A stretch of DNA of 15,982 nucleotides from a virus: the UHGV virus genome UHGV-0177145. One strand, 5' to 3'. A model generated the notes under the pieces. The model had not been told where the DNA came from. It did no database searches and worked only from the letters and a program-made list of their open reading frames with translations. Numbering within the stretch: the stretch's first letter is position 1; the number at the start of each line of letters is the position of its first letter. Below, piece by piece: positions 2,634 to 15,982 of this stretch. The position numbers were made by a program, and so were the translations under genes.

Positions 2634-3806
2634 ATGGCAGTAGGTGAAATTCAAATTAGTGCCTTGCCTCAAGCAGCCTTACCAATTGACCTTAGTGATA
2701 TCTTCCATCTTAAGCAGGGTATTGAGGATAAGAGGTGTACTCTTGAGCAATTACTTGCTCCACACGCAAGCCTGAAAAATAATCCTCATGGTGTTACTAA
2801 AACACAAATTGGTTTAGATAATGTTATTAATGCTCTTCAGTTAGTTGCTGCAAATAACTTATCGGATATTGTTAATGTAGCTGAGGCAAGAGCAAATCTA
2901 CAGATTATGTCTTCAGAAGAGGTCAATAATCTTGTTCAACAGCATATTAATGATAAGAGTAACCCACACAATACAACTAAGGCACAGGTCGGTTTAAGTA
3001 ATGTTCAGAACTGGACAACATCTAACCTGTATAACGAAGATGCAGATAAGTATGCTACAGCAAGAGCAGTAAATAACTTGTACAAGGCTGTTCAGGCTTC
3101 TTATCCAGTAGGTACTATCCATCTTTCTATGAACTCTGCAAACCCTTCTACATACTTAATTTGTGGAGGTACTTGGGAGTTAGTTTCAAAAGGTAGGGCA
3201 TTGGTTGGTTATACCTCTGATGCAAGACCAGCAGGTTCTGTATTTGGTGCTTCAACTGTCACTTTGTCAGTTAATAATATGCCTCAACACTCCCACTCTG
3301 TATCTCTTAGTGGTGGTGGTCATACTCATAATGCAACTGTGTCAATCTCAGCTTTTGACTATGGAACTAAGACTACCAACTCTTTTGACTATGGAACAAA
3401 AGCTACTAACACAACTGGCAACCATACACACAATGTATCAGGTAACACAAGCACAAATGGTACTCACAACCATGATGTGTATCCTAGAGAAAATGATGGT
3501 ACTGGTAATGCTGTAGCTGACTCTGATGGTGGTGGTGCATGGAGAACATCAAGAACTTCTAGTGACGGTGCACACTCACACAGTTTTAACGTCACATCTG
3601 GTGCATCAGGTGACCACAGCCACACGGTTGGTATTGGTGCTCACAGTCATACTGTCGGTATTGGCTCACATACACACAATGGTACTGTGACAGTTTCTTC
3701 TTCTGAGCATACGCATAGTGGAAACACGAACAGTGTTGGTGGTGGACAAGCTTTCAACATTGAACAGCCATCCTTTGTACTGTATGTATGGCAGAGAACA
3801 GCTTAA
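2634..3806 (+). CDS. Tail fibre protein with tail-collar-like domain and His-x-His repeat tip
   Basis: AGGAGA ribosome-binding site before the ATG. Two N-terminal repeats of the NPH..TK.Q(I/V)GL.NV type (HASLKNNPHGVTKTQIGLDNVIN; NDKSNPHNTTKAQVGLSNVQNW). YPVGTIHLSMNSANPSTYLICGGTWEL...LSVNNMPQHSHSV resembles the phage tail collar domain. Eight HxH motifs (HTH, HSH, HNH) in a Gly/Ser/Thr-rich C-terminus ending ...VWQRTA. Confidence 0.8.
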   Translation: MAVGEIQISALPQAALPIDLSDIFHLKQGIEDKRCTLEQLLAPHASLKNNPHGVTKTQIGLDNVINALQLVAANNLSDIVNVAEARANLQIMSSEEVNNLVQQHINDKSNPHNTTKAQVGLSNVQNWTTSNLYNEDADKYATARAVNNLYKAVQASYPVGTIHLSMNSANPSTYLICGGTWELVSKGRALVGYTSDARPAGSVFGASTVTLSVNNMPQHSHSVSLSGGGHTHNATVSISAFDYGTKTTNSFDYGTKATNTTGNHTHNVSGNTSTNGTHNHDVYPRENDGTGNAVADSDGGGAWRTSRTSSDGAHSHSFNVTSGASGDHSHTVGIGAHSHTVGIGSHTHNGTVTVSSSEHTHSGNTNSVGGGQAFNIEQPSFVLYVWQRTA

Positions 3807-3852: not shown

Positions 3853-6417
3853 ATGGCAGATTACAAGTTGAGTGAATTAAACTCAATCGACACAATCCGT
3901 TCAGACGACCTTCTTCATGTCAGAGTTAAAAAGAGACCTGAAATGCTGGGTGATGAAGACCGTCGAATGACCTATCAAGATTTCTTAGCATCTTTTAAAC
4001 TTGAGAGATTTGTTCAGATTGCTGGTAGCACTATGACGGGCGACTTAGGGATTGTTAAGTTACTTTATGGTGGTAAAGCAGTATTTGACCCAACAGGTTC
4101 TTCTGAGATTACTATTGGGGATGTTTTAAAGACTTTTAAAATCAATGCAAATGGTCTTAGGCTAACTATTGCAGATGCTTCAAGGTCAGCAACTGTTTAT
4201 CATACCCTGAATAAACCAAGTCCTAATGAGCTTGGGATGAGAACTAATGAAGAGAATGATGCAAGATATGCAAAGCTTGGTGCTAGAAACACATTTAACT
4301 CTCAGCAGACTATTGTAGTAAACGGAGAGCAGCTAACGCTAAGAAACCCTACCAGTGGGAGTGATGCATTCTCTGCTATCGTAGGTAGAGATTCAAGCAA
4401 CGAAAAAGTTTGGGCTATGGGAAATCTAATTAGTGGTAGCCGTGATTTTCGAATCGAGAGTAAACAAGGTTCAGCCATCACTCTAGGCACAAGTGTCACG
4501 ATTAGTAAAACCCTTGCTGTCAATGGTCAAGTGCAACCTGCTGATTGGGCTAACTTAGATGCTAGATACTTTACTCAGACAGTTGCTAATCAGAGATTTG
4601 CACAGTTAGCTGCTAATAACACTTTTAGTGGTTTAAACACCTTCAGCAACTATATTAGTGTTAGTTCTAATGCTGCTGCTATCATGCTAAAAAATAAAGC
4701 TGTTAATGAGTCTTTGTTCATCCTAGCAAAAGATGTTGAAGACAATAATCTGTGGTATATTGGTAAAGGTGATGCGAACGACAATATCACATTTTATGAC
4801 TACAAAGGTGGCACTTCTATTGTCCTAAACTCGTCTGGTGCTGCATTTAACAAGAGTGTAAAAATCACTGGTCAAGTTCAACCTTCCGATTGGACTAACA
4901 TTGATTCTAGATATATTCCAGCAGAGACATTAAGTACAATTGCACGAACTAATGCAATTAACACGTTCACTGAAAAGCAGGTTATTAACACTAATGGTGA
5001 AGCTATTACGTTAAAAGGAAAAACAACTGCATCGCTTTACATTAGAGCTAAGGATTATGATGGAACGAATAGGTGGTATGTTGGCAACGACAGTAAGGGT
5101 GACACTCTTAGTGTGTATAACTATAAAACTGGTAAAAGCCTAAGCATTGGTTCCGAAGTAGCAATTAATGCAAACTTAGTAATTGGTGGTCAAGTACAAC
5201 CTAGCAACTGGTCTAACTTAGATGCTAGATACTTTACTCAAAGTTCTAGCGACGAGAGGTATTTAAGAGTAAGAAGCACAGGCTTCAATCAGGGAAACGG
5301 TGAAAAATGGGCTAAAATTGCTACTGTTGTTATGCCACAATCAGCCTCCACTGCTGTCATTGAGGTATTTGGTGGGTCAGGTTTTAATGTCAATACACCA
5401 CACCAAGCAGGTAAGTGTGAGATTGTTTTAAGAACCTCAAATAGCAATCCAAAAGGTCTAAATGTCGTGGCTTGGAGAACAGCAGATAATACTATCGTCA
5501 CTGATATCGGTCATATTAATACATCTGGTGATACTTATGACATCTACTGTAGAGTTGGTACATACCAAAATGGTACAACATCAAGAGTTCAATCCTCTAG
5601 CAACGCAAGTGTACAGTTGTTTGAAGTCCCACAAACAACTGATGATGCTCCACAAGGTATTGTGAAGGGTACTGTTGCAAAATACTACACTAGTTTGCAA
5701 AAACCAAGCCCTTCAGATATTGGTGCATATACTAAAGCAGAAACTGACCAGAAGATTGCACAGGCAATTAGTGACTCTACAGACCTTAATAAAATCTATC
5801 CAGTAGGTATTGTAACGTGGTTCAACAGTAATGTTGACCCTAACACAGCCCTTCCTGGTCTAACTTGGACGTACCTGAACAATGGTGTTGGTAGAACTAT
5901 CAGAATTGCAGCAGCAAACGGTTCAGATGTTGCTACAACTGGTGGTTCAGACTCTGTAACGTTAGCTGTTGGTAACTTACCATCACACACTCACAGTTTC
6001 TCTGCTACCACTTCATCTTTTGATTATGGTACGAAGGGCACTAATAGTACTGGTGGTCATACTCACTCTGTAAGTGGTACAACAAGTGCTGCTGGTAACC
6101 ACGCTCACCACTTAGGTCTACTATTGGTTAATGGTGGTGATGCTCAGTACGGTTATACCACTATTGGTAACAACAAGACAAGAACTCTTGACTGGCTTGA
6201 CAGAACTGATAACAAGTTCCCTAACACTAACACAACTGGTAACCATACACACACATGGTCTGGTACTACAAGCGGTGCTGGTGACCATTCCCACTCTGTA
6301 GGTATTGGTGCTCACAGCCACACAGTCAGTGGTAACACTGGTAGTACAGGTTCTGGTTCAGCATTTAGTGTTACTAACCAGTTCTACAAGTTAATGGCTT
6401 GGGTAAGAACTGCTTAA
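3853..6417 (+). CDS. Large tail fibre protein (854 aa) with internal tandem repeats and His-x-His repeat tip
   Basis: AAGAGGA ribosome-binding site. Three tandem ~106-115-aa units each ending GQVQP(A/S)(D/N)W(A/T/S)N(L/I)D(A/S)RY. C-terminus has [17 protein letters not shown] and six HxH motifs, and ends ...MAWVRTA, parallel to the upstream fibre. Confidence 0.85.
4525..5240 (+). repeat. Intragenic tandem repeat array (three ~320-345-nt units) inside the large fibre gene
   Basis: ggtcaagt(g/t/a)caacct recurs at 4525, 4870 and 5188. A 28-nt perfect direct repeat ctaacttagatgctagatactttactca lies at 4550-4577 and 5213-5240. Confidence 0.8.
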
Positions 6418-6424
6418 TCCCTTG

Positions 6425-6453
6425 TTGACTGATTGTTAAGATGGTGTTAATAT
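6425..6453 (+). promoter_or_regulatory. Putative sigma70-like promoter for the small membrane-protein genes
   Basis: TTGACT (6425-6430), 17-nt spacer, TAATAT (6448-6453). A 9-bp inverted repeat AAGATGGTG (6438-6446) / CACCATCTT (6470-6478) brackets the -10 region. Confidence 0.35.
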
Positions 6454-6496
6454 TCTTTATGGGTATTCTCACCATCTTGGCTGATGAGGTGATTAA

Positions 6497-6694
6497 ATGC
6501 CTACAATCCTAGCAATTCTTCTAAAAAATCTAGGTAGCTTCTTCTGGAAACTCATTTTATCCCTTCTAAGTGAATACATGATTGAGAAAGTGTTCTTTAG
6601 GCTTGCAAGATACCTTGCGAGTAAAACAGACACACCTATTGATGATGAGTTCGTAGATAACTTAGAAAAAGCTTTTAAGGGGGAGAATAAATGA
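6497..6694 (+). CDS. Small membrane protein, holin-like topology (hypothetical, 65 aa)
   Basis: GAGGTGA ribosome-binding site. Hydrophobic N-terminal segment (PTILAILL...FFWKLILSLL) and a highly charged C-terminus. Stop overlaps the next start (ATGA). Confidence 0.45.
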   Translation: MPTILAILLKNLGSFFWKLILSLLSEYMIEKVFFRLARYLASKTDTPIDDEFVDNLEKAFKGENK

Positions 6695-7062
6695 AGTGGC
6701 TAGAGGAAGCTTTTAAAAATAATATTGGTGCAATTGTAGTTGGTATTTTTAGTGTTATTGGGATGTATACCACCATGCAAGTCTCGGATGGTAAGCAAGA
6801 AGTGTCTATCACAACAAAGTTACAGCAGTTAGATAATTATTCCAAAAGTAATTATTCAGCTATTCGTGATTTACAGTCTGATATGAGGCTGCTTCAGCTA
6901 GGGATGGAGAACCAGAAAGTCCAGTTAGAGAATGTTAAGGGTGAGAACGCAAAACTTACTAAGACTCTTGATAAATTCTCTGATAGTGTGAACAATCTGG
7001 CTCAATCAGTATCAGCCCTCCAAGCTATTACTGAAAAGAACACAAAGAATACTGAAAAGTAA
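6691..7062 (+). CDS. Membrane-anchored coiled-coil protein (hypothetical, 123 aa)
   Basis: AGGGGGAG ribosome-binding site. One predicted N-terminal TM helix (IGAIVVGIFSVIGMYTTM) followed by a heptad-like Q/L/N/K-rich region; topology resembles an i-spanin or antiholin, unproven. Confidence 0.5.
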   Translation: MKWLEEAFKNNIGAIVVGIFSVIGMYTTMQVSDGKQEVSITTKLQQLDNYSKSNYSAIRDLQSDMRLLQLGMENQKVQLENVKGENAKLTKTLDKFSDSVNNLAQSVSALQAITEKNTKNTEK

Positions 7063-7067
7063 AGTTT

Positions 7068-7100
7068 AAGGCTCCTTTTTACGGGAGCCTTTTTTGTTTT
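7068..7100. terminator. Rho-independent terminator at the convergence of the two gene blocks
   Basis: AAGGCTCC (7068-7075), 8-nt loop, GGAGCCTT (7084-7091), then TTTTTGTTTT. Lies 5 nt after the plus-strand stop (7060-7062) and overlaps the minus-strand stop codon (7099-7101) in its T-tract. The T-run is clear only for the plus strand. Confidence 0.7.
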
Positions 7101-7998
7101 ATTTACCTACTGACAAAGGTGCTTCAATCTTTCCTGCATGTTGGTAATTGTTAATACCACCGATAAAGTCACTTGCAGTGAGGTGTTTTAAGTCACTTAA
7201 AGTGTTAAGTGGGATACCAATCTCAAAAGTTGGTGCATGGAACTCTTCATTGTTCATCAGTTCATAAACCTGCTTCATATGATTCTGATAAATCTGAGTA
7301 TCTCCAAAGACACCTATCAAGTACCGTGGAGTGTATCCAGTCATCTTACAAAGAACTTCCAGAATAAAACCGTAAGATGCAATATTAAATGGAAGTCCTA
7401 AAAAGGTGTCTACAGAACGCTGATACCATTGTAAGTCAACTTCACCCTCGTTAGTGATATAAACCTGAAACAGAACATGACAAGGTGCTAGAGCCATTGA
7501 GTTTGCTGCAATATCTGCTGCATTCCAAGCATTAATAAGCATGTAACGGTCTGTGATATCACCCTTCATCTTCGCTACTAAGGTCTCTAGTTGGTCTACA
7601 ACACAACCGTTATGACCTTCAAAGTTTCTCCACTGAACCCCATAAATCCTTCCACCTGCATCCTCTAACCAATCTTGTTCAGAAGAGTAATTAGAGCTTA
7701 ACCAGCGTTTAAAATCATCTGACCAGATAGTCCAACGTTCTCCGTCATTCTCACCCCAAGTACGGTAACGGAGTTCACCCAGCTTATTCTCACCATTCAG
7801 GAACCATAAAGCTTCCCCAATAACTTGCCGTGTAAACACCTGTTTAGATGTTAAGAGTGGGAAACCAGTACGCATATCAAAACGAAATTGTGGTGGAGCA
7901 AATGCAGAGATAACATCTCCAGTCCGTGTAGTACGCAGTTCACCAACGGATAAAACATGGTTCAGAATATTTTTGTAACTCAAATCAGCTTGTGACAT
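7099..7998 (-). CDS. thyA: Thymidylate synthase (ThyA family)
   Basis: Motifs FPLLTSKQ, EALWFLNG, YGVQWR, catalytic MALAPCH, QRSVDTFLGLPFNIASY, GDTQIYQNHM. Overall collinear with E. coli ThyA as I recall it. Immediately downstream of a DHFR gene (frd-td-like order). Confidence 0.9.
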   Translation of the reverse strand: MSQADLSYKNILNHVLSVGELRTTRTGDVISAFAPPQFRFDMRTGFPLLTSKQVFTRQVIGEALWFLNGENKLGELRYRTWGENDGERWTIWSDDFKRWLSSNYSSEQDWLEDAGGRIYGVQWRNFEGHNGCVVDQLETLVAKMKGDITDRYMLINAWNAADIAANSMALAPCHVLFQVYITNEGEVDLQWYQRSVDTFLGLPFNIASYGFILEVLCKMTGYTPRYLIGVFGDTQIYQNHMKQVYELMNNEEFHAPTFEIGIPLNTLSDLKHLTASDFIGGINNYQHAGKIEAPLSVGK

Positions 7999-9692: not shown

Positions 9693-9992
9693 TTAATCTG
9701 CCAGCCTTAAATTAAAATTAACACCAAATTTTTCGCATACTTCCAACATAAACTCAAGAGAGACATTACCAGTGAGATTGATTATGTTGGATACACGAGC
9801 CTGAGAGATGCCACAAATTTTAGCAACTTGCTCTTGAGAAAGACCTCTGGATTTAATCTCTCTCTTAAAACGATGTGCAACGAAGTCTCTCATTTCGTCT
9901 ACATCCATTGGACAAATATAACTCTCCATTTCAGCCTCTCTGTCAGCCTCCCAATCATCTTGTGGAGCATAAGGGTCAAAAACCTCATTCAT
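9693..9992 (-). CDS. XRE-family helix-turn-helix DNA-binding protein
   Basis: C-terminal LSQEQVAKICGISQARVSNII is a classic XRE HTH. Track ORF starts at a TTG (10022); the ATG at 9990-9992 has an upstream GGAAGAAGAAAG purine tract and overlaps the upstream stop (ATGAATGA). Confidence 0.7.
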   Translation of the reverse strand: MNEVFDPYAPQDDWEADREAEMESYICPMDVDEMRDFVAHRFKREIKSRGLSQEQVAKICGISQARVSNIINLTGNVSLEFMLEVCEKFGVNFNLRLAD

Positions 9993-10197
9993 CTTTCTTC
10001 TTCCGTTTGCGTGAAGTGTCAATCAATGAATCTATGTTTGTAGCTCTAACCTTTTCACGTTCATCGTTAAGATAATCATCAAGAGCCTTTTCAATCTGTG
10101 AATCATCTTGACAGATAACTGTAAAGACTGTAAAGCCGTCTGTGTCATCAATTATCTTACCATAACCGCTTCTGGGATGTAACTTTTTAAGAGCCAT
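9985..10197 (-). CDS. Hypothetical small protein with lysine-rich C-terminus (70 aa)
   Basis: ORF ending SRKRKKKDE, translationally coupled to the HTH gene. Confidence 0.45.
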   Translation of the reverse strand: MALKKLHPRSGYGKIIDDTDGFTVFTVICQDDSQIEKALDDYLNDEREKVRATNIDSLIDTSRKRKKKDE

Positions 10198-10198
10198 A

Positions 10199-10582
10199 TC
10201 AAATACCTGTGCAGCTTCTGTTTTCTAAGAAATACTCAACACCATACATAGCTTTTTGCATCAAATCTTCTTTAAACTGAATACGATGATTGAGCATAGC
10301 CTGTGCATCAATATCATCATGGTGCTTCTCTTTAATATTTGCAGATTGCAGGAAATACTCTGCAAGAACGCGATACTGATAGTCAGTTACCTTATCAGTC
10401 ATCTCTGTTAAAGACTCTTCAGAGATTGGTTTAAGTAACTCACCATTAGCCAAAGCAACACCTTTAACAATCTGACAAGTGTCTTCTGGAACACCTGATA
10501 AGTCCACATTTGGAAGTTCTGTTGCATTGACTGGTAAATTCATTGCCATAATCATTGCAGCGGCTAATAAAATCTTTTTCAT
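10199..10582 (-). CDS. Secreted or periplasmic protein with Sec-type signal peptide (127 aa)
   Basis: MKKILLAAAMIMAMNLPVNA/TELP: positively charged n-region, hydrophobic core, AxA-like cleavage site. GAGG ribosome-binding site 7 nt upstream. Confidence 0.6.
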   Translation of the reverse strand: MKKILLAAAMIMAMNLPVNATELPNVDLSGVPEDTCQIVKGVALANGELLKPISEESLTEMTDKVTDYQYRVLAEYFLQSANIKEKHHDDIDAQAMLNHRIQFKEDLMQKAMYGVEYFLENRSCTGI

Positions 10583-10626
10583 AATGACCTCAAAGTTATA
10601 TTAAATTTTGTATTACGTTGAGTATA

Positions 10627-10674
10627 AAAATAAGCTATAACACCTGACTTGTCAATAGATTTTATAGCTTATTT
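10627..10674 (-). promoter_or_regulatory. Perfect 13-bp inverted repeat bracketing a putative proximal promoter
   Basis: AAATAAGCTATAA (10628-10640) / TTATAGCTTATTT (10662-10674), 21-nt spacer. On the minus strand the spacer holds TTGACA (10650-10655), 17 nt upstream of TATTTT (10627-10632). Confidence 0.3.
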
Positions 10675-10828
10675 GGCAGATTTTTTATAAGGCTACTGCC
10701 ATCCTTCCATACCAAACCACACCCTGCCAAACCAGAGCCTACTAGACCATACCGAACCAAACATCACTTAAAAACCCTTTTAAAAGACTCTTAAGTGATG
10801 TTGGTGAGTACCTGTTGGTTTATGCTGC

Positions 10829-10858
10829 TCAGTATACTCACCAAATTTTCTATGTCAA
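10829..10858 (-). promoter_or_regulatory. Strong sigma70-like promoter just downstream of the ligase stop codon
   Basis: Minus strand: TTGACA (10853-10858), 16-nt spacer, TATACT (10831-10836). A 10-bp inverted repeat TTGGTGAGTA (10801-10810) / TACTCACCAA (10835-10844) overlaps the -10 and the predicted start site. Confidence 0.45.
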
Positions 10859-10864
10859 CAACTT

Positions 10865-12656: not shown

Positions 12657-13160
12657 TCAACTTAGTTTTGCAAACTCTCCGTGGAGTTTTATAGCAGCTT
12701 CACAGTAAGCTTTATGGGCTTCTTCAGGTGTGTCAAATAAACCAAGTGATGTCCTTTTACCTCTGCATGTTATAGCTGCCCTCCACTTATTGCAGTCTTT
12801 AAAGTAATATACACCCTTGTAACCTGATTTGTTAGTTGTCTGCTTTACTCTATTTTGAGCATTTCCGTATTTATCAGTCTCCCTAAGATTAGAAATGTGA
12901 TTATTACTTCTGTTACCATCAATGTGGTCTATCATCTTAGTGGGTTTGTAACCATGTTCGAACCACCAAACGAGGTGATGAATTTTTATTACGACATCTT
13001 TGAATTTAAGTACTTTGTAACCGTAAGCATCAGCACCTCCTGCAATCTGCCCAGCTTTAGCTTGTCTATTCCTGTCATACTTGTTGTAGAAGACCCCTTT
13101 GTCGGGGTCGTAAATAAAATTATCCTTGTAATCTTGAAGTGTTAGTGTACGGCGTACCAT
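12657..13160 (-). CDS. HNH homing endonuclease with AP2-type DNA-binding domain
   Basis: HNH core HHLVWWFEHGY...IDHIDGNRSNNHISNL plus AP2-like SGYKGVYYFKDCNKWRAAITCRGKRTSLGLFDTPEEAHKAY. Start overlaps the last 19 nt of the polymerase gene. Confidence 0.8.
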   Translation of the reverse strand: MVRRTLTLQDYKDNFIYDPDKGVFYNKYDRNRQAKAGQIAGGADAYGYKVLKFKDVVIKIHHLVWWFEHGYKPTKMIDHIDGNRSNNHISNLRETDKYGNAQNRVKQTTNKSGYKGVYYFKDCNKWRAAITCRGKRTSLGLFDTPEEAHKAYCEAAIKLHGEFAKLS

Positions 13161-15841
13161 GTCTTACCTACCTTACCAGTGCCTGTAACAAGCGTCTTAC
13201 TCTTTAATCCAAGATTTTTTGATGCTTGACCATACATTCTATCAATAATCTCCTTAACATCAGGTACATCTTTGGTTGGAACCTCTAAAGAGACCTCATC
13301 GTGGTAACTACAGACCCATCTAGCACCAATAGCGGGCTTCCTACCATTTAGAACTGTAAGCTTGCGCTCTGTTAACTCTCTGTTAGCCAAGTTAATACCC
13401 TCATTCTGCACCTGCGCCTCACTTCCCATAAGTGTGTAATTCAATAACTTATGTGGAGATTTACACCATAACCAAGCTCCAGCAACTTTGATATAACCAC
13501 CTTTGGCAATTGCAGAAGTTTTTCCAAAAACCTCTTCAAGTGCTTTCTTAGTTGCTTTGAAGTCTTCCTCTAGTCTATCAAGCAGTTTTTTAATCTTAGG
13601 TAGACGCACAAAGTAAGTTTGTTTAGTCAATGCACCCTCTTCCGTAGATGATGCCTTGATAGTTTTTGCAAACTTCTCGTCTCCGGCTCCAAATAACAGG
13701 GCGTAGATGCCATTTTTGCTCTTCTTACGACCTTTTGTAATCTCGTGGAGAAGTTCCTCATCCTGTGTCTCCCTGCAACGAACAATATCCTCTTCTTTGT
13801 TAAGACCAAAGTAAATACTGTTCAGTGTATGCGCATCAGTCCCTGTGTAGACTTCATAGAGGTCATTTTCAGCATCATAACGCAGATACTTGTCAGTTTC
13901 TGGGTTAAGATACTTGTCAAGATGTTTACAGTAATATCTACCATCATCTTGCTTAGTGAACTCTACTGACTCTTTACCCTCAGTTACCGCTTTAGTGAAG
14001 TCTTCATCACCCATAAAGTTACAAAGGAGAACTAGCTGTGCTGAGTTTTGGTCTACGGAGATGATATCTGTACCATCTTCACAAGTCCACACCTCCCTCA
14101 TAGGTGCTCCATAGACAGCAGCACCAGACGGTACGTTTACAATACCATACTGAGTCATACGTCCAGTTGAAGTACCAAACACCATTGCGCCAGCACTAAG
14201 GCGACCATCTGGACGAATCTGGTTCAACCAACCTTTTTCATCATCCTTTGAGTTCTCAATAGTTCTGCGTCGGTGCATCAAAGTATAGTACTTAGCAATC
14301 TTCTGTCCAAGCTCACCTTCAATCGTATCATAAGATGACTCAGTAAGTTTTGGTGAAGTACGGATTAAGCAAGGTTCAAGCAAATCTGTGTACTTCTTCA
14401 CAGACCAGTTATGTTCAATGTACTGGACACCTTCATGTTCAACATAACTCAAACCACACCGTTCCACCATCTCATCCCATTTAGGATGCTTTGTAATCAT
14501 CTTTTTGTTGTCTTTGAAGCGACAAACCTTAACAGGACGACCATCAGAGTCTTTCTTGTAGTTCCAGTCATCTGGAATCCAACCAACTGATTTCAAGTAG
14601 TCTTTAACAACTGCTACCTGAGTCATACGAGAAACTTCGAACTCAATTGGTGTATATGGTGCATCAATCAAACCTGTGTAGCGACTTGACTCAAGCTCAA
14701 AGTGGTTAACAACATGGCTGTTATAGTACTTCACAGTTTTAACTGTTTTTACTGGCTTCCAGTCTTTGCACTTCTTACCAATCTTTGCATTCAACTCATT
14801 GCAAATTGCACGAGCATCCTTCATTGCTACAAAACCTTCCTTGTACTCTTCACCAGTTACAGAGTTGGTTGGTGTATAGCAATTCCGCTTTTCAATGTTA
14901 AAAATCTTTGTAGTTGGTTTACCAAATGGCTTGATTTCATATGTCTGCATCTCACCGTTACGTACCTGTTGACGATACTTTGTCTTAGGGTACTTGGTAA
15001 TTCTCTTCAGTCCATCTGCATGACCAAACGCTTCAACATACTCATTCCAAGCTTTTGCAAATTCTTCTCCAGTGACTTTACCTTTGGTCTTAATAGTTGG
15101 AGGAAGATGTGGTTCAACTTCTGAAGCAAGCTCATTAGTCAACTTGTCAAGTTCCTTTACATGGAACTCCATAAGTTCTTTATCAGCTTTCCAACCATTA
15201 ATAGCCTGTTGACTCATCCAGAAAGATGTCTCTTTAGCTCGCATATAGGTTTCATAAGTGTCTATGCCACACTTCTTAAGCTTGAGATATTCATTATCAA
15301 GTGCCCGTTTAGTTTTGGCGTTAATGCGAATATCTTCTACAACACGAGTGAAGATTTCTGCATTCCACACACCCCAATGTTCAATCTCTGGTTTACGTAC
15401 ACCAACACGAGCACCCCATGCTGCCAAGCCATGAGCACCTTTATAGCCCTTTGGAGTTGGTCTATCCATCCACTGAACACGAGATTGGATAAGAGAATCC
15501 TGAAAGAAATTGCTCCACGGCTTACACTTTGGATTATCAAAGTTCCATAAATCAGGTGCAATGTGATTGAAAACCCACCAGTCATACCCCAGACCATTAT
15601 GGATGCAAAGTCGTTTTGCCTTTAACGCAAACTCAACACCTTCACGCAAGCCACCCTTAATGTACTTGGTATACTTGTGACCGAGGATAGGCTCATCTGT
15701 AAAGACCCATACAGGTGGCTCTTCATCGTCAGATTTATAGTCTGCGAAAGCCATTACGTGCACTTTAGTGAACTCAAGGAGTAAACCATCAGTTTCTGTA
15801 TCACCAACTAAATGTAAGTTTTTAAAATCTACGTTTTCCAT
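13142..15841 (-). CDS. Family A (T7-like) DNA polymerase with 3'-5' exonuclease domain
   Basis: Exo motifs DTETDG and HNGLGYD. Polymerase motif B KSKNGIYALLFGAGDEKF (T7-like), motif C SYHDEV, motif A-like VDQNSAQLVLL. Start moved from the track (15871) to ATG 15839-15841, which has a GAGGGAG ribosome-binding site 6 nt upstream. Confidence 0.9.
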   Translation of the reverse strand: MENVDFKNLHLVGDTETDGLLLEFTKVHVMAFADYKSDDEEPPVWVFTDEPILGHKYTKYIKGGLREGVEFALKAKRLCIHNGLGYDWWVFNHIAPDLWNFDNPKCKPWSNFFQDSLIQSRVQWMDRPTPKGYKGAHGLAAWGARVGVRKPEIEHWGVWNAEIFTRVVEDIRINAKTKRALDNEYLKLKKCGIDTYETYMRAKETSFWMSQQAINGWKADKELMEFHVKELDKLTNELASEVEPHLPPTIKTKGKVTGEEFAKAWNEYVEAFGHADGLKRITKYPKTKYRQQVRNGEMQTYEIKPFGKPTTKIFNIEKRNCYTPTNSVTGEEYKEGFVAMKDARAICNELNAKIGKKCKDWKPVKTVKTVKYYNSHVVNHFELESSRYTGLIDAPYTPIEFEVSRMTQVAVVKDYLKSVGWIPDDWNYKKDSDGRPVKVCRFKDNKKMITKHPKWDEMVERCGLSYVEHEGVQYIEHNWSVKKYTDLLEPCLIRTSPKLTESSYDTIEGELGQKIAKYYTLMHRRRTIENSKDDEKGWLNQIRPDGRLSAGAMVFGTSTGRMTQYGIVNVPSGAAVYGAPMREVWTCEDGTDIISVDQNSAQLVLLCNFMGDEDFTKAVTEGKESVEFTKQDDGRYYCKHLDKYLNPETDKYLRYDAENDLYEVYTGTDAHTLNSIYFGLNKEEDIVRCRETQDEELLHEITKGRKKSKNGIYALLFGAGDEKFAKTIKASSTEEGALTKQTYFVRLPKIKKLLDRLEEDFKATKKALEEVFGKTSAIAKGGYIKVAGAWLWCKSPHKLLNYTLMGSEAQVQNEGINLANRELTERKLTVLNGRKPAIGARWVCSYHDEVSLEVPTKDVPDVKEIIDRMYGQASKNLGLKSKTLVTGTGKVGKTWYAVH

Positions 15842-15982
15842 TTTTACTCCCTCTAAAATCATTAACCTCATACATTACTGCAAAAAATTATAAAAAGCAA
15901 GTTGACAATGTACTTGACAAGGTGTTAATCTTTGCGAAGTGGGTTTTTACTTAAAAGGTTACTTAACAGTTTAACTATACAG

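Follow-up and report, generated by a model that had tools for sequence, protein, structure and literature searches.

A translationally coupled pair of small membrane-type proteins in a Felix O1-like phage as a possible two-component holin module

Felix O1-like phages are used in the typing of Salmonella and E. coli, in biocontrol and in therapy. The DNA analysed here, a stretch of 15,982 nucleotides of the virus genome UHGV-0177145 (the window), belongs to a Felixounavirus, i.e., a Felix O1-like coliphage, and shows 99% identity to published genomes. At the end of its tail-fibre operon, two small genes are located, flanked by the last tail-fibre gene on one side and a bidirectional terminator on the other; their products are the equivalents of gp78 (65 aa) and gp79 (123 aa) of Felix O1. 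In 2010, the larger protein was put forward as a candidate holin, and numerous GenBank and UniRef records name it “putative holin” or “holin”; this database name rests solely on its TM helix.

The 65-aa protein is encoded at 6497–6694 on the forward strand, with the Shine-Dalgarno sequence GAGGTG at 6486–6491, and the 123-aa protein at 6691–7062 on the same strand, with GGGGAG at 6680–6685. The stop codon of the first and the start codon of the second ORF overlap in the sequence ATGA, confirming the original prediction of two coupled small ORFs. An overlapping or abutting gene pair is kept in Felixounavirus, Mooglevirus, Suspvirus, Kolesnikvirus and Zyzzx. Downstream, a bidirectional rho-independent terminator at 7068–7100 (7068–7091 in the scan), comprising a 9-bp stem with five G-C pairs and a T-run, is common to the pair and the convergent thymidylate synthase gene (7099–7998, minus strand). 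It is identical to the Felix O1 terminators t79/t80 and is annotated on both strands in the record of AYO145A, which also notes one TM domain in each of the two proteins.

The 123-aa protein, a member of phrog_4038, consists of a short N-terminus, one Gly/Ser/Thr-rich TM helix (residues about 11–29), a flexible linker, and a long helix; residues 30–123 include 13 basic and 12 acidic residues. The best 19-mer (residues 11–29) has a borderline Kyte-Doolittle value of 1.62. The tail is modelled as a single 83-residue helix (residues 40–122; AlphaFold2 pLDDT 82), which shows a significant hydrophobic periodicity of 3.5 residues (2/1000 shuffles), i.e., of heptad type. These results agree with the expectation of one TM helix followed by a coiled-coil-like tail. 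No Pfam or NCBIfam family matched the protein above threshold, the scans returning only sub-threshold coiled-coil noise, and a weak full-length match to phrog_19043 (E 3.6e-4) was obtained.

The 65-aa protein belongs to the family of Dc5 of phage RB49, as indicated by its match to phrog_402 (E 4e-22), which is also matched by Dc5 of GEC-3S (E 5.5e-20) and by the protein of locus L024 (E 4.3e-12); membership in this PHROG was tested on these three proteins, and the other loci discussed below were found by tblastn. All close homologues carry the precomputed tag PF26925, while NCBIfam and a copy of Pfam without PF26925 gave no match. In a phmmer search of the whole library, only 17 cluster representatives were found at E <= 1e-3, so short a query being of limited use for detecting remote relatives on its own; a second IMG/VR scan added no new loci, and comparing the model with viral structures by Foldseek yielded nothing beyond uncharacterised members of the family and generic helical proteins. 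In the literature searched, no functional study on PF26925, on Dc5 or on a tested Felix O1 holin was found.

Three helices are predicted for the 65-aa protein (AlphaFold2 pLDDT 81): a hydrophobic one (residues 2–23) with the conserved lysines K10 and K18, an amphipathic basic one (26–43), and an acidic one (47–64) preceded by a conserved T-x-T-x-x-D-D cap. The core of the Dc5 family, F-G-x-K-L-L ... S-E ... F-F ... T-x-T-x-x-D-D, is present; in the family alignment, F34, D49 and D50 are invariant and L19, E26 and T44 are conserved to 90% or more. As in the larger protein, the hydropathy of the best 19-mer (1.56, residues 3–21) is borderline; across the family, the N-terminal helix exceeds 1.6 in 28 of the 37 members, with a median of 1.77. 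Residues 44–65 include seven acidic and three basic residues. Hydropathy and residue counts are thus consistent with the hydrophobic N-terminus and charged C-terminus described originally.

As the original prediction had stated, no endolysin or lipoprotein partner is located here. The Pfam scan detected no peptidoglycan hydrolase domain in the ten unassigned ORFs of the window, and the remaining ORFs match genes with non-lytic annotations of phage JohannRWettstein (Bas63), which, being 98% identical, served as a stand-in for the whole genome. A search of the three forward frames of 6400–7110, which also covered an embedded o-spanin, revealed no lipobox ORF. In Bas63, the pair is located at 23.1 kb, an i-/o-spanin pair of the Rz type at 61.8–62.3 kb, and the endolysin gene (0123) at 76.4 kb, i.e., the endolysin and the spanins are encoded about 53 kb and 38 kb away from the pair, respectively. 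These positions agree with the suggestion that the lysis genes are split across the genome, a dispersal that is already documented in the papers on Felix O1, Moogle and Meda. The endolysin is soluble and has no N-terminal TM or signal-anchor segment, and a holin is therefore required. None is annotated in Bas63, and the authors of the Meda paper found none. Four other holin candidates were listed for Felix O1 by Whichard et al., and the genome encodes other small TM proteins, e.g., a 68-aa protein with two TM helices and a 110-aa protein combining a TM helix with a coil.

The gene neighbourhoods of the Dc5 family in other phages associate it with lysis. Its members adjoin endolysins of four Pfam families and of one PHROG endolysin family: the Dc5-like gene directly follows an endolysin gene of the GH108 type in L008, L012, L042/43 and L049, of the Phage_lysozyme type in L011, of the Peptidase_M15_4 type in L014, of the Peptidase_M15_3 type in L024/L056 and L061, and of phrog_465 in L040; in L044 and L051, Peptidase_M15_3 is encoded one to two genes upstream. 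On the 3' side, Dc5 of Krischvirus is directly followed by the gene of a T4-type T holin (PF11031, E 4.5e-61), and the Dc5-like gene of L052 by that of a LydA-type holin (PF16083, 38.1 bits at a cut-off of 28.4; phrog_785 holin, E 1.5e-11). A 147-aa neighbour in L052 received no family assignment from the scans.

The arrangement seen in the window recurs in L024/L056 and L051, where the gene directly 3' of the Dc5-like gene codes for a protein of 106–109 aa with an N-terminal TM helix and a coiled coil; the start of this gene and the stop of the Dc5-like gene overlap in L024/L056 and are directly adjacent in L051. An M15_3 endolysin is encoded upstream. The L051 partner weakly matches phrog_19043 (E 5.2e-4), the same PHROG as the 123-aa protein, which is only a hint at a relationship between the two sequences. 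For the 123-aa family and the TM-plus-coil partners of L024 and L015, hhalign gave no significant result, and we do not claim common descent. In the T7-like contig L021, a TM protein gene and the Dc5-like gene fill the slot between fibre and terminase genes, which in T7 is occupied by the gene of holin 17.5. The partner adjoining the Dc5-like gene in L022 and L048 is a coiled-coil protein with a C-terminal TM helix, and tiny TM peptides of 26–31 aa are encoded ahead of the endolysin gene in L008 and in L011. L011 also has, about 2 kb away from its Dc5-like gene and on the other strand, an ORF for a 109-aa coil protein with a C-terminal TM helix and a sub-threshold XhlA match. DUF5675 neighbours in L015 and L048 were not counted as endolysins, since Pfam and PHROGs give no function for them. 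In 7-11, LAh_6 and podophages of the Privateervirus type, members of the 65-aa family are encoded inside the structural module with no adjoining lysis gene.

The pair itself is an ordinary, already annotated feature; the association with lysis at the level of the Dc5/phrog_402 family is a new, modest lead. The company of endolysins and holins is the first independent, context-based reason to favour the pair as holin candidates over the remaining small membrane proteins of the genome. Our best explanation, which we put forward tentatively, is that the pair is the holin-type, membrane-permeabilising part of the dispersed lysis system. The module would be a two-component holin that is not homologous to any characterised holin, and the assignment of roles to its two proteins is uncertain. 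Both proteins would be expressed as the last products of the late tail-fibre transcript, from the conserved promoter of the pair, or in both ways, with the ATGA coupling fixing the proportion of the 65-aa to the 123-aa protein, and each would become inserted into the inner membrane. Encoded in the “holin slot”, the 123-aa protein may be the hole-former, with a class III-like architecture as in T of T4, while the 65-aa Dc5-family protein may be its membrane partner, acting either as antiholin or timing regulator or as an obligatory co-holin. Triggering of the module would let the soluble endolysin, which is of the T4 lysozyme type, reach the murein, and the separately encoded Rz/Rz1-type spanins would then break the outer membrane. 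The sequence analysis itself establishes the coupled gene structure, the helical architecture, the conserved regulatory elements, the positions of endolysin and spanin genes across the genome and the repeated occurrence of the 65-aa family in lysis cassettes; membrane insertion, topology, hole formation, division of roles and timing of expression are what we infer for the pair.

Both proteins resemble holins in being small, in having at least one TM helix (albeit of borderline hydropathy) and in their charged, hydrophilic C-terminal region, and neither of them matches a Pfam Phage_holin family, any NCBIfam family or a holin-annotated PHROG in the scans made. The suggested “holin plus antiholin” is hence supported by context, as members of the 65-aa family are encoded beside endolysins and holins, but not by homology. 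Several observations count against a holin module: neither gene adjoins the endolysin gene in this genome, the host-type promoter and the Felix O1 transcript times discussed below are ill-suited to a strictly late holin, there are the other small TM proteins and the other listed candidates, the hydropathy of both hydrophobic helices is borderline, profile comparison gave no significant similarity between the 123-aa family and the other TM-plus-coil partners, and the family of the 65-aa protein also occurs in structural modules.

It is conceivable, with slightly more reserve, that the Dc5/phrog_402 family is an unrecognised, widespread class of modular holin partners (antiholins or timing subunits, or co-holins), swapped among phages along with or beside unrelated holins, and that the pair is a coupled two-component holin whose larger subunit represents a new single-TM coiled-coil type. 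The holins concerned would be of the T type, the LydA type and the TM-plus-coiled-coil type, and the endolysins are likewise unrelated. If the family were a general holin partner, “hypothetical” genes for proteins of about 60 aa could receive an annotation in many phage genomes, and holin regulation would gain an example beyond RI/RIII of T4 and S107 of lambda.

The same module with the roles exchanged, i.e., with the 65-aa protein as hole-former and the 123-aa protein as accessory protein or antiholin (compare XhlA, or Gp5 of Ms6), is rather unlikely, yet it accounts for several observations. The 65-aa protein is the conserved component (48–52% identity between Felixounavirus and Kolesnikvirus, versus 27% for the 123-aa protein), and its relatives are the only sizeable membrane-type proteins adjoining the soluble endolysin in L011, L012, L014, L040 and L049. 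With a single putative TM helix at the N-terminus, in which a conserved basic stripe is present and acidic residues are absent, an interfacial amphipathic helix and a charged C-terminus, a protein of this size fits small holins; moreover, the partner in L022 and L048 has an XhlA-like layout. However, the relatives of the 65-aa protein in Krischvirus and L052 have a member of a recognised holin family as their immediate neighbour and are thus not the sole holins there, and the 26–31-aa TM peptides of L008 and L011 could be the holins of those cassettes. One to two conserved Lys/Arg residues inside the putative TM helix and the lack of homology to characterised holins also speak against this assignment.

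The timing of expression bears on a further explanation. Upstream of the pair, a sigma-70-like promoter is present at 6425–6453 on the forward strand, with TTGACT (6425–6430) and TAATAT (6448–6453) separated by a 17-nt spacer and an extended -10 motif, TG, at 6445–6446 (consensus scan). Window-wide, promoter-like sites with a 9/12 match are not above chance (29 observed, 44.7 expected); within the 79-bp intergenic gap, this is the only one. The -35 and -10 elements and both arms of an overlapping inverted repeat show no variation among Felixounavirus, Mooglevirus, Suspvirus and phage vB_SflM_004, whereas 33 of the 58 other intergenic columns vary (Fisher p about 2e-7, for lineages that are few and related). 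One further, near-identical TTGACT-N17-TAATAT occurs in the related complete genome, just 5' of bas63_0098, which is the first of a run of separately spaced small genes. Conservation thus supports the claim that the pair has its own promoter, and the segment 6425–6453 probably acts as such.

A 9-bp palindrome said to bracket the promoter (6438–6446/6470–6478) is real, but its size had been understated: it belongs to an imperfect inverted repeat of 15 nt (arms 6438–6452 and 6464–6478) and of a larger hairpin (6435–6481, forward strand) that contains the -10 element rather than flanking it. Folded as RNA, this segment forms a 19-bp two-tier hairpin (stems 6435–6446:6470–6481 and 6449–6455:6461–6467) of -28.2 kcal/mol (z = -3.8; 0/200 shuffles equally stable), and its 19 consensus pairs include one compensatory change and three one-sided changes that keep pairing. 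No Rfam family matched the hairpin, and no further copies of the repeat, as expected for the operator of a regulon, were detected in the complete related genome; the distant relatives Zyzzx and phiEa21-4 have a terminator-like hairpin at the equivalent spot. The repeat may be an operator or an RNA element.

A host-type promoter with an overlapping operator-like repeat would suit an early inner-membrane function unrelated to lysis, for instance superinfection exclusion or protection of the membrane, comparable to Imm, Sp and rII of T4, the end of the fibre operon being merely a parking place for a pair driven by its own promoter. In RT-PCR experiments on Felix O1, ORF79 was detected at 5 min and ORF78 at 25 min, before the fibre ORFs 76/77 at 60 min, and together with the conserved promoter these times argue for earlier or independent expression; the missing sequence link to known holins also agrees with an early role. 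However, the position of the pair as the last genes of the late structural unit argues for late expression, and the RT-PCR series is internally odd in that it also scores major capsid and tail genes at 5 min. PADLOC defence models gave nothing useful, only a weak coiled-coil match, and members of the 65-aa family are, in unrelated phages, repeatedly linked to endolysin and holin genes, which would be unexpected for an exclusion gene. We therefore regard an early membrane function as quite improbable.

A role of the 65-aa protein, possibly together with the 123-aa protein, as fibre-assembly factor or minor virion component is more doubtful still. Its gene directly follows the distal fibre gene in Ounavirinae and Krischvirus, i.e., it takes the place that the chaperone/adhesin gp38 has after gene 37 in T-even phages, and is drawn among fibre genes; it directly precedes tail or fibre genes in 7-11, LAh_6, 3H10_20, L015 and L057, and the PHROG of a 78-aa TM-plus-coil protein of 3H10_20 bears the annotation virion structural protein. 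However, a strongly hydrophobic N-terminal helix is a trait of the family and is atypical for a soluble chaperone. Members are also encoded directly behind endolysins and in regions of early or recombination genes (L008, L040); in L042 the gene lies ahead of a large non-fibre ORF, and in L008, L040 and L042 there is no fibre gene in the transcription unit. Moreover, gp78 and gp79 were not among the proteins found by mass spectrometry of Felix O1 virions.

The i-spanin option of the original prediction can hardly be upheld: a 123-aa protein acting as a second, stand-alone i-spanin-like or outer-envelope-disrupting factor would agree with the layout of N-terminal TM helix and long helical domain and with a marginal match to the Rz-like spanin phrog_739 (E 0.0097, no stretch passing alone), but no lipoprotein ORF is embedded, overlapping or adjacent, a complete Rz/Rz1-type pair with a true i-spanin (phrog_1152, E 9e-42) and an overlapping lipoprotein gene is present elsewhere in the genome, hhalign of the 123-aa family against that i-spanin was null, and the single unbroken, cysteine-free helix is unlike typical Rz, which has two helices with a linker, and cysteines.

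Among known systems, a two-component holin module as favoured here resembles the lysis system of T4, which comprises the class III holin T and the antiholins RI and RIII. In both phages, the gene in the holin slot is the last one after the tail-fibre cluster and before a terminator, endolysin and spanins are encoded far off, and rIIA and rIIB are present in the genome (as found in Bas63); the 123-aa protein would share with T a single TM helix and a large domain of the non-cytoplasmic type, and in the Krischvirus relatives of T4 Dc5 is encoded directly upstream of t. Unlike T, the 123-aa protein is outside PF11031, which the Krischvirus protein in the equivalent position clearly matches, and its extramembrane part is predicted to be a single coiled-coil helix instead of a globular domain. 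No homologue of RI or RIII was identified here, the translational coupling of the partner gene has no counterpart in rI and rIII, and to our knowledge lysis inhibition is not known for the Felix O1-like group.

Size and layout of the pair are almost identical to those of Gp4 and Gp5 of mycobacteriophage Ms6. These small membrane proteins, of about 77 and about 124 aa, are encoded side by side; the larger one is charged except for its only TM domain, which is N-terminal, and both are needed for correct timing of lysis, as Catalao et al. reportedly found in 2011. However, the sequences are not similar, two TM domains are present in Gp4, the Ms6 genes are within a compact lysis cassette adjoining the endolysin gene, and the host is Gram-positive-like with a mycolate envelope. 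In the Bacillus element PBSX, the coiled-coil membrane protein XhlA is encoded beside the small holin-type protein XhlB, and both contribute to endolysin release. The pair shows the same juxtaposition, and in L022 and L048, too, the Dc5-like gene has a coil-plus-TM partner beside it; in contrast to XhlA, the TM helix of the 123-aa protein is N-terminal rather than C-terminal, and Pfam gave no above-threshold match to XhlA or XhlB.

Rz of lambda is of similar size and likewise combines a TM helix at the N-terminus with a helical coiled-coil domain behind it, but differs from the 123-aa protein in its o-spanin partner gene, its cysteines, and its two helices with a linker in place of one uninterrupted helix. 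The single small holin gp17.5 of T7, which has no coupled partner, is encoded directly behind the tail-fibre gene and at a great distance from the endolysin gene, and the gene of the SP6 holin gp39 also directly follows the tail-fibre gene. The pair lacks sequence similarity to these holins and is coupled; like them, it is a case of small genes placed directly after a tail-fibre gene and distant from the endolysin gene, and it is in this slot that the T7-like contig L021 carries its Dc5-like gene.

The 901 bases around the coupled gene pair share 97–99% identity with more than 140 published genomes of Felix O1-like myophages (Felixounavirus), the best match being Escherichia phage vB_EcoM-LTH02 (99.4%). 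On the plus strand of the window, baseplate and tail-fibre genes are followed by a convergent leftward block coding for thymidylate synthase, dihydrofolate reductase, small proteins, DNA ligase, a homing endonuclease and DNA polymerase. The two small coupled ORFs of the original prediction are present at 6497–6694 (+, 65 aa) and 6691–7062 (+, 123 aa), each preceded by a good Shine-Dalgarno site, the start of the second sharing ATGA with the stop of the first. A scan placed a terminator, the t79/t80 terminator of Felix O1, at 7068–7091. A direct 10-nt repeat, AAGCTTTTAA (6669–6678 and 6707–6716), lies on either side of the gene junction, so that the 65-aa protein ends ...LEKAFK... and the 123-aa protein begins ...LEEAFK...; the motif is kept in phage Mordin and missing from Zyzzx and phiEa21-4. 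The tail-fibre proteins encoded by 2634–3806 and 3853–6417 (+) both end in G-x-H-x-H runs and have a C-terminal module in common, which resembles the iron-binding needle of T4 gp37. In the leftward block, a gene for a 167-aa HNH/AP2-type homing endonuclease (12657–13160, –) directly adjoins the DNA polymerase gene (13142–15871, –) at the latter's 3' end; the syntenic gene of phage JohannRWettstein (Bas63), which follows the polymerase gene in the same way, carries the annotation putative homing endonuclease. A 127-aa protein without Pfam match (10199–10582, –) has a cleavable-looking signal peptide (MKKILLAAAMIMAMNLPVNA/TE). The 280-bp gap ahead of its gene (10583–10864) holds the window's two best sigma-70-like promoter matches (10858–10831, –, 11/12; 10655–10627, –, 10/12), and a 48-aa two-TM ORF which Bas63 has in the 10199–10864 region is missing from the window.

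The 123-aa protein corresponds to Felix O1 gp79, encoded by the last rightward gene ahead of t79. Its model comprises a Gly/Ser/Thr-rich hydrophobic helix at about residues 11–29 (Kyte-Doolittle hydropathy, KD, 1.62), a linker of low model confidence, and one 83-residue helix whose heptad periodicity is significant. The 65-aa protein, a member of the Dc5 family of phage RB49, is modelled as three helices (2–23, 26–43 and 47–64; pLDDT 81): the first is hydrophobic, with conserved basic K10 and K18 and no acidic residues, the second amphipathic and basic, and the third acidic and preceded by a conserved T-x-T-x-x-D-D cap. The KD of its N-terminal 19-mer is 1.56; among 37 family members the median is 1.77, with values >1.6 in 28. 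In the PHROGs database, the 65-aa and 123-aa proteins fall into phrog_402 and phrog_4038, respectively, both of unknown function, and neither matched a family in the local Pfam and NCBIfam libraries. In a 101-aa fusion protein of another phage sequence (L023, 4821–5126), the Dc5 domain is preceded by a signal-like segment and an additional TM helix, which could be useful for working out how the family is oriented in the membrane.

Whichard et al. (2010) listed gp79 among five small TM proteins that "could be the holin", and noted that, as in T4, no holin adjoins the lysin gp35. Many GenBank and UniRef records, including that of Citrobacter phage Mordin, label the protein "holin" or "putative holin", and many others hypothetical. 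Our literature search retrieved no study in which a holin candidate from Felixounavirus had been tested experimentally. The locus is thus an annotated putative holin locus of a well-known phage group; what is added here is context evidence linking the unannotated 65-aa partner family to lysis cassettes in many phages.

By tblastn, the 65-aa family is far more widespread than the 123-aa protein, with matches in Kolesnikvirus (52% identity), T4-related Krischvirus, Vibrio phages, and podophages of the 7-11, LAh_6 and Privateervirus types. In Krischvirus, Dc5 occupies the gene 38 position between the distal fibre gene 37 and holin gene t, whose product matches PF11031, the T holin family (E 4.5e-61). 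Among IMG/VR and metagenome contigs, and in Vibrio phage 1.039.O, the family member directly follows, and often overlaps, an endolysin gene, the enzyme being of the GH108 (loci L008, L012, L042/43, L049), Phage_lysozyme (L011), Peptidase_M15_4 (L014), Peptidase_M15_3 (L024/L056, L061) or phrog_465 (L040) type; in L044 and L051 an M15_3 peptidase lies one to two genes upstream. In L052, the gene that follows codes for a holin of the LydA type (PF16083, exceeding the gathering score; phrog_785, annotated as holin, E 1.5e-11). Downstream of an M15_3 endolysin, L024/L056 and L051 reproduce the window's gene order: the small gene is followed by one that encodes an N-terminal-TM plus coiled-coil protein of 106–109 aa and whose start overlaps (L024/L056) or abuts (L051) the small-gene stop. 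The L051 partner and the 123-aa protein both gave weak full-length matches to phrog_19043 (E about 4–5e-4); direct profile comparison of the 123-aa protein with the L024 and L015 partners was not significant, so these partners share an architecture rather than proven homology. The L022 and L048 partners are coil plus C-terminal-TM proteins, the fibre-terminase slot of the T7-like contig L021 is filled by the small gene together with one for a TM protein, and in L054 (262–1191) the two genes directly after the Dc5-like gene, coding for a lipoprotein of 78 aa (lipobox LAAC) and a TM plus coiled-coil protein of 113 aa, resemble a spanin pair. In the 7-11, LAh_6 and 3H10_20 group the small gene lies within the structural module with no lysis gene adjoining; as a caution, a 78-aa TM plus coil protein of 3H10_20 belongs to a PHROG annotated as virion structural. 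Single-TM peptides of 26–31 aa, both ending GGL, are encoded upstream of the endolysin in the Vibrio-phage-type cassettes L008 (2602–2682) and L011 (228–323) and could be mini-holins. In L015 (4606–5001) and L048 (3607–3987), a DUF5675 protein (phrog_1501, unknown function) is encoded next to the Dc5-like gene, with a gene for a holin-like TM protein or a fibre on its other side; since other cassettes have an endolysin in that position, it may be a cell-wall hydrolase. The adjoining fibre in L015 also carries HxH motifs.

Across these otherwise unrelated cassettes the Dc5-family protein is constant and is combined with a different enzyme and a different second membrane protein from one cassette to the next, a pattern expected of a holin-system component. 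Recognised holin families lie directly 3' of the Dc5-family gene in two independent lineages, and the 123-aa gene has the same position and is translationally coupled; we therefore favour the 123-aa protein as the putative hole-former, with the 65-aa protein as its conserved partner, antiholin or co-holin. The coupled pair is conserved through five Ounavirinae lineages. Nearly as good is the reverse assignment, with the 65-aa protein forming the hole: it is the better conserved of the two, and in some cassettes where its family adjoins a soluble endolysin, no other sizeable protein of membrane type is encoded alongside.

That the lysis genes are split across the genome, as had been suggested, is correct and already on record: the Moogle and Meda announcements describe scattered lysis genes in Felix O1-like phages, the Meda authors finding no identifiable holin. 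In the 98% identical Bas63, the pair lies at 23.1 kb, far from rIIA and rIIB (56.4–59.9 kb), an overlapping i-spanin/o-spanin pair (61.8–62.3 kb) and the endolysin (76.4 kb, opposite strand). The endolysin is devoid of an N-terminal hydrophobic segment and therefore needs a holin, and none is annotated. Other small TM proteins of the genome are possible holins; in Bas63, possible rivals are the 68-aa product of a gene within the nrd cluster (L025, 46375–46581), which has two TM helices and a charged C-terminus, and a 110-aa N-terminal-TM plus coil protein among early small genes (L026, 16578–16910), both in PHROGs of unknown function.

The promoter proposed for the pair was recovered by consensus scan (TTGACT, 17 nt, TAATAT, extended –10 TG), but the scan alone proves nothing, because the window has no excess of 9/12 matches (29 sites against an expectation of 44.7). 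In an intergenic alignment of Felixounavirus, Mooglevirus (Mordin), Suspvirus (SUSP1, PC79-13) and phage vB_SflM_004, however, neither hexamer and neither repeat arm shows any change, nor does most of the ribosome-binding site, whereas 33 of 58 other columns vary, which adds weight to the predicted promoter. The 9-bp palindrome reported to bracket it is present within a larger, 15-nt imperfect inverted repeat, found once in a related complete genome. As RNA, the repeat folds into a 19-bp two-tier hairpin (6435–6481; –28.2 kcal/mol, z = –3.8) enclosing the –10, whose pairing is maintained through one compensatory exchange (C-G/U-A) and three changes on one side only; no Rfam family matched. Because the –35 is not part of the hairpin, its conservation cannot be due to RNA structure. 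Zyzzx and phiEa21-4, distant relatives, have a terminator-like hairpin at the equivalent position. At the DNA level the element may be an operator; alternatively, in fibre mRNA that reads through, it may form a hairpin for attenuation or processing. A 109-aa HTH_3 (Cro/C1-type) protein encoded in the leftward block (9693–10022, –) is the window's only recognisable candidate binder of the repeat (6438–6478), a purely speculative link.

The conserved host-type promoter would also suit an early membrane function such as superinfection exclusion, as would RT-PCR of Felix O1, with times of 5 min for ORF79 and 25 min for ORF78 versus 60 min for the fibres; the RT-PCR series is weak, because capsid genes also scored at 5 min. 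A fibre-assembly role of the 65-aa gene would fit its position beside the fibre genes, but conflicts with the hydrophobic helix, with cassettes where the gene follows an endolysin and no fibre gene shares its transcription unit, and with the absence of gp78 and gp79 from the Felix O1 virion proteome. The 123-aa protein as i-spanin, an option originally considered, is discarded: the locus has no lipoprotein ORF in any frame, and the protein shows no profile similarity to the Bas63 i-spanin, a solid Rz-type protein (phrog_1152, E 9e-42) with a lipobox partner.

The original observation is thus confirmed and slightly extended, and its interpretation partly supported. Because of the cassette context of the 65-aa family, the coupled pair is the leading candidate for the holin system in Felix O1-like phages; the same evidence makes it a simple experimental target. 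Where membership could be tested, the two proteins fell outside the families of T4 T, Ms6 Gp4/Gp5 and PBSX XhlA/XhlB; in function, T4 T with its antiholins and the latter two pairs are the closest analogues of the putative two-component system.
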